Shown: in pieces, positions 18,070 through 18,429 of the stretch | Layout: every line of letters starts with the position of its first letter | How positions within the stretch are numbered: position 1 is the stretch's first letter | DNA from: Escherichia coli | Lineage (GTDB): Bacteria; Pseudomonadota; Gammaproteobacteria; Enterobacterales; Enterobacteriaceae | Strand: one strand, 5' to 3' | Assembly (NCBI RefSeq): GCF_044324785.1 | Contig: NZ_CP172127.1 | DNA: 64,000 nucleotides | The notes under the pieces: model-generated | Seen by the model: only the letters and a program-made list of their open reading frames with translations | Database searches by the model: none | Told to the model about the DNA's origin: nothing | Made by a program: the position numbers and the translations under genes

Positions 18070-18089
18070 GATTTACCTGGCCTTTCATT

Positions 18090-18103
18090 TGTTATGGGTA
18101 ACG
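18090..18103 (-). promoter_or_regulatory. GntR operator-like site (minus strand CGTTACCCATAACA) close to the gntT start
   Basis: Resembles the ATGTTACCCGTAACAT-type GntR operator; overlaps a TTGACG -35-like hexamer. Confidence 0.4.
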
Positions 18104-18229
18104 TCAATTTTCTGACGACAAACTCTAATTATCCCAATCGGGAACAGAGATATTGCGGCACCACGACTGATACCCACTAAAACTAATTATTGTAGTCAGA
18201 TGTCAGGAGTATGTTTGGTACCCATGTGA

Positions 18230-18245
18230 ATGATACGGGTAACAT
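18230..18245 (-). promoter_or_regulatory. GntR operator palindrome ATGATACGGGTAACAT
   Basis: 15 of 16 positions match the GntR operator consensus as I recall it; near-perfect palindrome in the gntT upstream region. Confidence 0.6.
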
Positions 18246-18429
18246 CCGGCGTTTGAGAATCACCAGAGCGGGGTAAATTTAAATTATGAGAGGTTGGTCA
18301 TATTATCGCGGGGAAACGAAAGGAGGGATTTGCCAAAGCAATGCTGCGCCAACGTCTGGCACATGTTCAACGTAGGCCCGAAATGACGCTTTAGCGTCGC
18401 ATCGGGCAATCTACAAAAGAGGGGATAAC

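Follow-up and report, generated by a model that had tools for sequence, protein, structure and literature searches.

The nfuA-gntT intergenic region and its two GntR operators

The window, which is the whole stretch of 64 kb analyzed here, is part of the Escherichia coli chromosome and carries genes that are annotated as malP, malQ, gntT, nfuA, gntX and bioH, both in the best-matching genome and in K-12 MG1655. The region of interest is the control region of gntT, which occupies the nfuA-gntT intergenic region and corresponds exactly to positions 18070-18429. In this region, two palindromes (O1 and O2) had been predicted from the sequence alone to be operators of the gluconate repressor GntR. 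The identity of gntT is taken from the RefSeq annotation of DNA that is 99-100% identical to the window. As a 360 bp query, the region matched 5,424 of the 5,426 complete E. coli genomes, and in comparison to MG1655 five of the 360 positions differ, none of which lies within either palindrome.

Taken together, the results described below make it very probable that O1 and O2 are the previously characterized operators through which GntR, a dimeric repressor of the LacI/GalR family, controls the sigma-70 promoter of gntT. The two GntR operators and the binding site for the cyclic AMP (cAMP) receptor protein CRP in the gntT promoter are already known, and the finding re-identifies a characterized region. 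On the gntT strand O1 reads ATGTTACCCGTATCAT (ATGATACGGGTAACAT on the plus strand), with one mismatch to ATGTTA-N4-TAACAT and with six of eight symmetry pairs holding. The original prediction had described this site (18230-18245) as a near-perfect palindrome of the GntR operator form; both its placement and its match to the operator stood, while the wording "near-perfect" was slightly generous. For O2, 18090-18103 had been proposed on the minus strand (CGTTACCCATAACA), and the full 16-mer ACGTTACCCATAACAA has two mismatches to the same consensus. This site was confirmed to lie about 20 bp from the gntT start codon: its near edge is 19-20 bp away from it, and its centre is located 27 bp 5' of the ATG, at about +126 from the predicted transcription start. 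With their centres 141 bp apart, the two operators also have the spacing of about 140 bp that had been claimed for them. Both sites fall within the control region of gntT, as O1 holds the predicted -10 hexamer and O2 is found in the leader.

To score the two sites, the window was initially scanned with the bare consensus, allowing up to two mismatches. This yielded four matches compared to 1.87 expected and was not significant by itself; therefore, it was replaced by a position weight matrix (PWM) derived from other sites of the regulon. The PWM is symmetric and was built from five K-12 sites in GntR-regulated control regions other than that of gntT (gntK, two sites; edd, two sites; idnD/idnK). 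O1 (score 20.3) and O2 (score 19.4) ranked first and second among the approximately 64,000 positions of the window, followed by scores of 17.4 and 12.7, and the training sites themselves score 21.2-23.0. Equally good matches are expected by chance 0.005 times (O1) and 0.01 times (O2) per 64 kb of first-order Markov sequence. A PWM scan had been suggested as a check together with the original prediction, and the scores that it returned for the two palindromes were thus not poor. The third-best match (TTTTTACCCGTAAAAA, 45738-45753, score 17.4) is situated in the 3' part of the coding sequence of hofQ (open reading frame 44651-45889). It is probably a chance match, because the G of GTTAC, present in nearly all training half-sites, is missing from it.

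The published record of the gntT promoter is in line with these results. O1 agrees in every letter with the 16 bp operator of E. coli GntR that was taken from Peekhaus & Conway 1998 for the construction of a cell-free biosensor, in which a promoter carrying this operator was repressed in a GntR-dependent manner and repression was relieved by gluconate (bioRxiv 10.1101/2023.01.10.523462). Two GntR binding sites and one CRP site are described for gntTp (PMC11661191), and a PgntT reporter was repressed more than 5-fold by GntR (PMC13386637). According to one report, gluconate abolishes binding of GntR to the gntT promoter, as does 6-phosphogluconate at higher concentration (PMC2230225, citing Peekhaus & Conway 1998). 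The GntR consensus ATGTTACCCGTAACAT is quoted together with the gntK site ATGTTACCGATAACAG (PMC10450161), which is one of the five training sites of the PWM. Thus, the assignment of two GntR operators to the control region of gntT is supported by the PWM, by the published operator, by the reported pair of sites and by the conservation described below.

E. coli GntR has been treated as a member of the LacI/GalR subfamily (PMC3877293), and its full length can be matched to structures of the LacI family (3h5o, CcpA, PurR, LacI). The gntT operator is therefore a palindrome of the LacI type. Membership in the winged-helix "GntR family" (FadR/HutC-type) was ruled out by this full-length match, and the shared name is a coincidence.

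Conservation and promoter context of the operators

Two diverged haplotypes of the nfuA-gntT intergenic region exist in E. coli. The second one was present in 920 of the 5,424 matching genomes (80-90% identity band) and differs from the window by substitutions at 54 of 360 positions (84% identity), whereas the flanking coding sequences of gntT and nfuA are 98.3% and 96.4% identical between the haplotypes. None of the 54 substitutions falls on the 32 operator positions (p ~0.006 by our own arithmetic, if the substitutions were evenly spread), although the bases directly flanking O1 and O2 do differ. Between the haplotypes, the sequence is unchanged only in the operators and over about 70 bp that include the CRP site and the -35 hexamer. 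Of the two, it is the minority haplotype that is more similar to E. albertii (85%, compared to 77.5% for the haplotype of the window).

To extend the comparison beyond E. coli, one genome per species was scanned, which yielded 80 loci encoding GntT relatives. Of these, 31 are found in a whole or partial nfuA-gntT-malQ neighborhood, and upstream sequence is available for 30 of them. The syntenic loci belong to 14 genera (Escherichia, Salmonella, Citrobacter, Enterobacter, Lelliottia, Klebsiella, Kluyvera, Kosakonia, Pluralibacter, Phytobacter, Trabulsiella, Superficieibacter, Pseudocitrobacter and Pseudescherichia). GntT-like genes outside this context (Yersinia, Serratia, Dickeya, Pantoea and others) were left out as orthologous promoters, because they are located next to gntR/gntK or in unknown contexts. 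Both sites were detected in all 30 loci; O1 was unchanged throughout, O2 showed at most small changes, and the centre of O2 was always 26-27 bp from the ATG. An alignment of 16 sequences from the 14 genera had a mean column identity of 67%. Of its 32 operator columns, 31 were invariant (O1 16/16, O2 15/16), compared to 26 of 229 other non-coding columns. The block AAGGCCAGGTAAATCATG, which includes the Shine-Dalgarno-like AGGT, is nearly invariant between genera in the same alignment.

A consensus scan revealed TTCTCA-18-TATCAT as the sole sigma-70-like promoter on the gntT strand, with 9 of 12 consensus matches. The block around its -35 hexamer (GTGATTCTCA) is largely conserved between genera and identical in the divergent E. 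coli haplotype. The 1998 study by Peekhaus and Conway reportedly describes an operator over the -10 hexamer, a second one far downstream in the leader and a CRP site at about -71; the layout predicted here agrees with this. Relative to the predicted start, the candidate CRP site would occupy a canonical class I position (-71.5). The transcription-start supplements of PMC3415461 hold no entry for gntT. Based on its conservation, its position and the literature (PMC11661191), the CRP site is probable. On the plus strand, a promoter-like TTTAAA-17-TATTAT (18278-18306) overlaps the region of the CRP site and is oriented towards the 3' end of nfuA, antisense to this gene. The surrounding sequence is rich in A+T, and the match is probably due to chance. 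The coordinates of all features are compiled in Table 1.

Table 1. Features of the gntT control region and of the loci compared with it. Positions without a locus label (L) are those of the window.
Feature	Position	Strand	Remarks
gntT	open reading frame 16753-18069	minus	ATG 18069-18067; high-affinity gluconate transporter
Shine-Dalgarno-like AGGT	18075-18078	minus	5 nt 5' of the gntT ATG; read from the sequence
GntR operator O2	18089-18104	minus	ACGTTACCCATAACAA; 5' leader; PWM rank 2
TTGACG	18102-18107	minus	overlaps O2 by 3 bp; 3' arm of leader hairpin P4
Hairpin P4	18117-18102	minus	CGTCA 18117-18113 / TGACG 18106-18102; abuts O2 and the ribosome-binding site
Hairpin P3	18132-18143	minus	TCCC-GATT-GGGA; single-sequence folds
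Helix P1	18157-18222	minus	18222-18216 pairs with 18163-18157; closes the 5' domain of the leader
Predicted transcription start (G)	18223	minus	7 nt after the -10 hexamer; leader of ~154 nt
GntR operator O1	18230-18245	minus	ATGTTACCCGTATCAT; promoter-proximal; 3' half is the -10 hexamer; PWM rank 1
Predicted -10 TATCAT	18230-18235	minus	inside O1, its downstream half; invariant between genera
Predicted -35 TTCTCA	18254-18259	minus	consensus scan
Candidate cAMP-CRP core TATGA-N6-TCTCA	18287-18302	minus	centre 18294.5, 71.5 bp 5' of the predicted start
REP-type palindromic element	18376-18415	minus	3' of nfuA; outside gntT control
Compared intergenic stretches	window 18070-18429; L006 1501-1863; L007 1501-1865		two diverged haplotypes
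edd GntR-consensus pair	L004 (K-12 edd region) 4578-4593 and 4800-4815		TTGTTACGCGTAACAA is a perfect palindrome
gntR/gntK-linked loci	L041, L044-L048, L050, L061-L066, L068, L070-L079, L081, L082		tandem sites

Several points weigh against the identification of O1 and O2 as the GntR operators of gntT. Binding of GntR is taken from later papers that quote Porco 1997 and Peekhaus & Conway 1998, and the transcription start is a predicted one. The training sites of the PWM were chosen by their match to the consensus rather than from footprints, and the matrix is not fully independent of this consensus. With two mismatches allowed, the CRP core is at chance level (25 matches in the window compared to 24.4 expected). 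Lastly, the conservation of O2 is partly confounded with that of the adjacent ribosome-binding block and of the leader hairpin P4.

The latter point leads to the reading that O2 is conserved for reasons of RNA, as part of a leader hairpin and of the translation initiation region, and that GntR acts via O1 only. O2 indeed keeps its fixed distance from the ATG beside the nearly invariant ribosome-binding block, P4 has its 3' arm in the first bases of O2, and the palindrome itself would be able to form a 4 bp RNA hairpin. Yet its PWM score is as high as that of bona fide sites and the second of 64,000 positions, RNA pairing would allow compensatory changes while 15 of the 16 columns never vary, and gntTp has two GntR sites (PMC11661191); we therefore regard this reading as very improbable. 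Very improbable, too, is the idea that O2 serves a second promoter near the ATG with TTGACG as its -35 hexamer, so that each operator would have a promoter of its own. The original prediction had pointed to TTGACG as a -35-like hexamer overlapping O2. The hexamer is present, matches the -35 consensus at five of six positions and does overlap the operator, but no acceptable -10 hexamer follows it at 16-18 bp, TTCTCA/TATCAT being the only promoter detected on this strand, and the distance to the ATG is only 32 nt. In addition, its TT is limited to the K-12-type allele of E. coli; the other haplotype and E. albertii have CT at this place, and AT, CA, AA, AC or CC occur in other genera. Only GACG, as part of O2, is retained. 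As it has no -10 partner in the scan and is not conserved, TTGACG was rejected as a -35 element. That the palindromes are functionless chance matches is close to impossible. The loose consensus does occur more often in the window than expected, but the PWM ranks, the invariance of the operators against a divergence of 16% within the species and 33% between genera, and the publication of the sequence as a working operator all speak against chance, which is already refuted by conservation and literature.

On the nfuA side, the intergenic region contains a REP-type (repetitive extragenic palindromic) element, which partially matches the Rfam family naRNA4 (RF02564) with 27.5 bits and E = 0.0087, below the gathering score. 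The family naRNA4 is linked to REP elements. After this element, a terminator-like hairpin with a T-rich tail is found at 18363-18345 (minus strand), and both together (18345-18415) probably end transcription of nfuA ahead of the gntT promoter. In the window, hofQ is located approximately 726 bp farther from gntT than the MG1655 coordinates predict; therefore, the strain of the window carries extra DNA somewhere between nfuA and hofQ (~18430-44650).

Mode of repression and related operator arrangements

From the layout of the region, a mechanism can be proposed in which GntR bound to O1 would cover the -10 hexamer and thereby exclude RNA polymerase. O2, about 126 bp into the transcribed leader, would add repression either by cooperation with O1 or by blocking elongation. 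Gluconate binds to GntR and releases the repressor from the DNA, and the cAMP-CRP site upstream of the start would confer catabolite-sensitive activation.

Cooperative repression or looping between the operators had been put forward in the original prediction. In its strict form this would mean that looping is essential, i.e. that GntR dimers at O1 and O2 tetramerise and loop out the 141 bp between them in the style of lac O1-O3 or gal OE-OI, and that the spacing is selected for helical phase. The layout permits this: one site is located at the promoter and one downstream of it, at a distance within the looping range of about 60-400 bp. Spacings of 140-141 bp are the commonest ones among these loci (18 of 32 syntenic sequences), and a similar split pair, 222 bp apart, is present at edd in K-12. 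The 1998 gntT study is reported to have found that full repression needed both operators and to have discussed looping. On the other hand, the O1-O2 spacings across genera are 133, 136, 139, 140, 141, 143, 144, 147 and 148 bp; in one lineage, the spacing is 65 bp. Divided by 10.5 bp per turn, they leave fractional parts of 0.67, 0.95, 0.24, 0.33, 0.43, 0.62, 0.71, 0.00 and 0.10, and of 0.19 for the 65 bp lineage, so that on this comparative evidence every helical phase is covered. GntR (331 residues) aligns to LacI up to GntR residue 317, which corresponds to residue 316 of 360 in LacI, and 14 GntR residues follow; the C-terminal tetramerisation helix of LacI has no counterpart in GntR. The length of about 140 bp may instead be kept by a structured leader RNA (see below). 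Of the proposal made in the original prediction, the permissive layout therefore stands, while looping itself is unsupported by spacing and repressor structure. We consider an essential, phase-selected loop doubtful but possible, and GntR may still bridge the operators in a GalR-like manner.

Instead, we lean towards the view that O2 acts independently of helical phase, by roadblock or loose cooperativity, rather than by a rigid loop. O1 is tied to the -10 hexamer. The fixed position of O2 relative to the start codon, while the distance to O1 drifts through all phases, argues against a rigid, phase-locked loop. The LacI-family repressor PurR acts as a transcription roadblock at purB, where a dimer bound well downstream of the start lowers expression without looping. 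By analogy, this could be a model for the action of O2, with the difference that gntT additionally has an operator overlapping the promoter.

When the region is compared to known systems, nothing of substance differs from the gntT promoter-operator of K-12, which is the same locus (Porco 1997; Peekhaus & Conway 1998). What later papers quote from this work of the 1990s agrees with the region in the O1 sequence, in the presence of two GntR sites and in the CRP site. The general arrangement is shared with lac (O1/O2/O3) and gal (OE/OI), where a LacI/GalR-family repressor likewise binds palindromes with a central CG-type core, and where a primary operator at the promoter is combined with an auxiliary one about 100-400 bp away. 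Unlike in lac, the repressor has no equivalent of the tetramerisation helix and the gntT spacing is not phase-conserved between genera.

Within the GntR regulon of K-12, gntKU shares motif and repressor with gntT. However, its sites (ATGTTACCGATAACAG and CAGTTACCCGTAACAT) overlap in tandem at a centre-to-centre distance of 13 bp, in contrast to 141 bp at gntT. The edd gene, which is under GntR control, has a split pair like gntT, but the spacing is 222 bp, and the downstream site does not precede the ribosome-binding site but lies within the coding sequence. The two edd sites were identified by their match to the consensus only, ATGTTACCGGTAAAAT in the zwf-edd intergenic region and TTGTTACGCGTAACAA 12-27 nt after the ATG.

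GntT-like genes (79-87% identical) adjoin gntR and/or gntK in Yersinia, Serratia, Dickeya, Rahnella, Chimaeribacter, Brenneria and others. In front of these genes, two overlapping GntR sites are found 14 bp apart, e.g. ATGTTACCGGTATCATGATACCGGTAACAA, and none near the ATG. This layout resembles that of E. coli gntK rather than that of E. coli gntT. Judged from the sequences compared, the split operator layout is specific to the nfuA-gntT-malQ locus of core Enterobacteriaceae, because gntK and the gntR/gntK-linked GntT-like genes have tandem sites and edd is arranged otherwise. The split gntT layout may well be listed already in curated regulon databases. A third GntR-like site (NTGTTACCCGTATCTT, scores 12.7-15.9), which precedes O1 by 120 bp and the ATG by about 286-290 bp, occurs in three loci only, those of Phytobacter (L025), of a metagenome-assembled genome from soil (L030) and of Enterobacter sp. 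Bisph1 (L051).

A possible leader RNA between the operators

The stretch between O1 and O2 (18105-18223, minus strand) might encode a conserved, structured 5' leader RNA that controls stability or translation of the gntT mRNA, and this, rather than DNA looping, could explain why a spacing of about 140 bp is found in most Enterobacteriaceae. We put this forward as a tentative proposal that is, on balance, unlikely. RNAalifold analysis of 24 Enterobacteriaceae leaders yielded the long-range helix P1, in which 86% of the alignment cells are paired. Both sides of a pair were changed in 26 cells compared to 10.3 ± 2.5 in shuffled alignments (none of 500 reached 26), and the covariation score was 0.457 compared to at most 0.22 when the partner was slid by 1-3 columns. 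If P1 really begins at nucleotide 2 of the transcript (18222, next to the predicted start at 18223), it might plausibly serve to shield the 5' end against decay.

Downstream of P1, two hairpins recur with changing sequence. In place of P3, unrelated stems are found elsewhere at the same position (UUUGUUCC/GGAACGGA, UGCUGCC/GGUAGUA, UUUCA/UGAAA and UCCCG/CGGGA). P4 is kept with other arms (CGUCAG/CUGACG, GUCGUUG/CAAUGAC and CUUUGCUG/CAGCAAAG), and its 3' arm runs into O2. Both hairpins were tabulated by eye from the folds of the individual sequences, and their registers shift between genera in the MAFFT alignment. The folding energies of the leaders are unremarkable (mean z-score of the minimum free energy -0.6, with one of 24 leaders below -2). 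The case for a leader structure is therefore based on the covariation of P1 and on the recurring hairpins and not on stability.

Counting against a leader structure, the lineage with a spacing of 65 bp is without most of the leader. This lineage comprises Pseudescherichia vulneris and Escherichia sp. ESNIH1 (L057 and L058, at ~1900-2000), has GCGTTACCCATAACAT as O2 and can be viewed as a natural deletion mutant that has lost most of the leader structure. A search of positions 17900-18600 against Rfam gave no match in the leader, the only hit being the sub-threshold, REP-related one at 18376-18415. In the literature searched, no paper was found that links gntT to a leader or to an element in an untranslated region.

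As a discovery, the two operators carry little weight, since the gntT promoter with both operators and its CRP site was worked out in the late 1990s and its components are now used as parts in synthetic biology. The value of the finding is that both operators were located correctly from the sequence alone, and that the comparative data refine two points. The possible structured leader is the only potentially new item and is tangential to the operators; the covariation in P1 is consistent with an RNA structure that has so far not been described.

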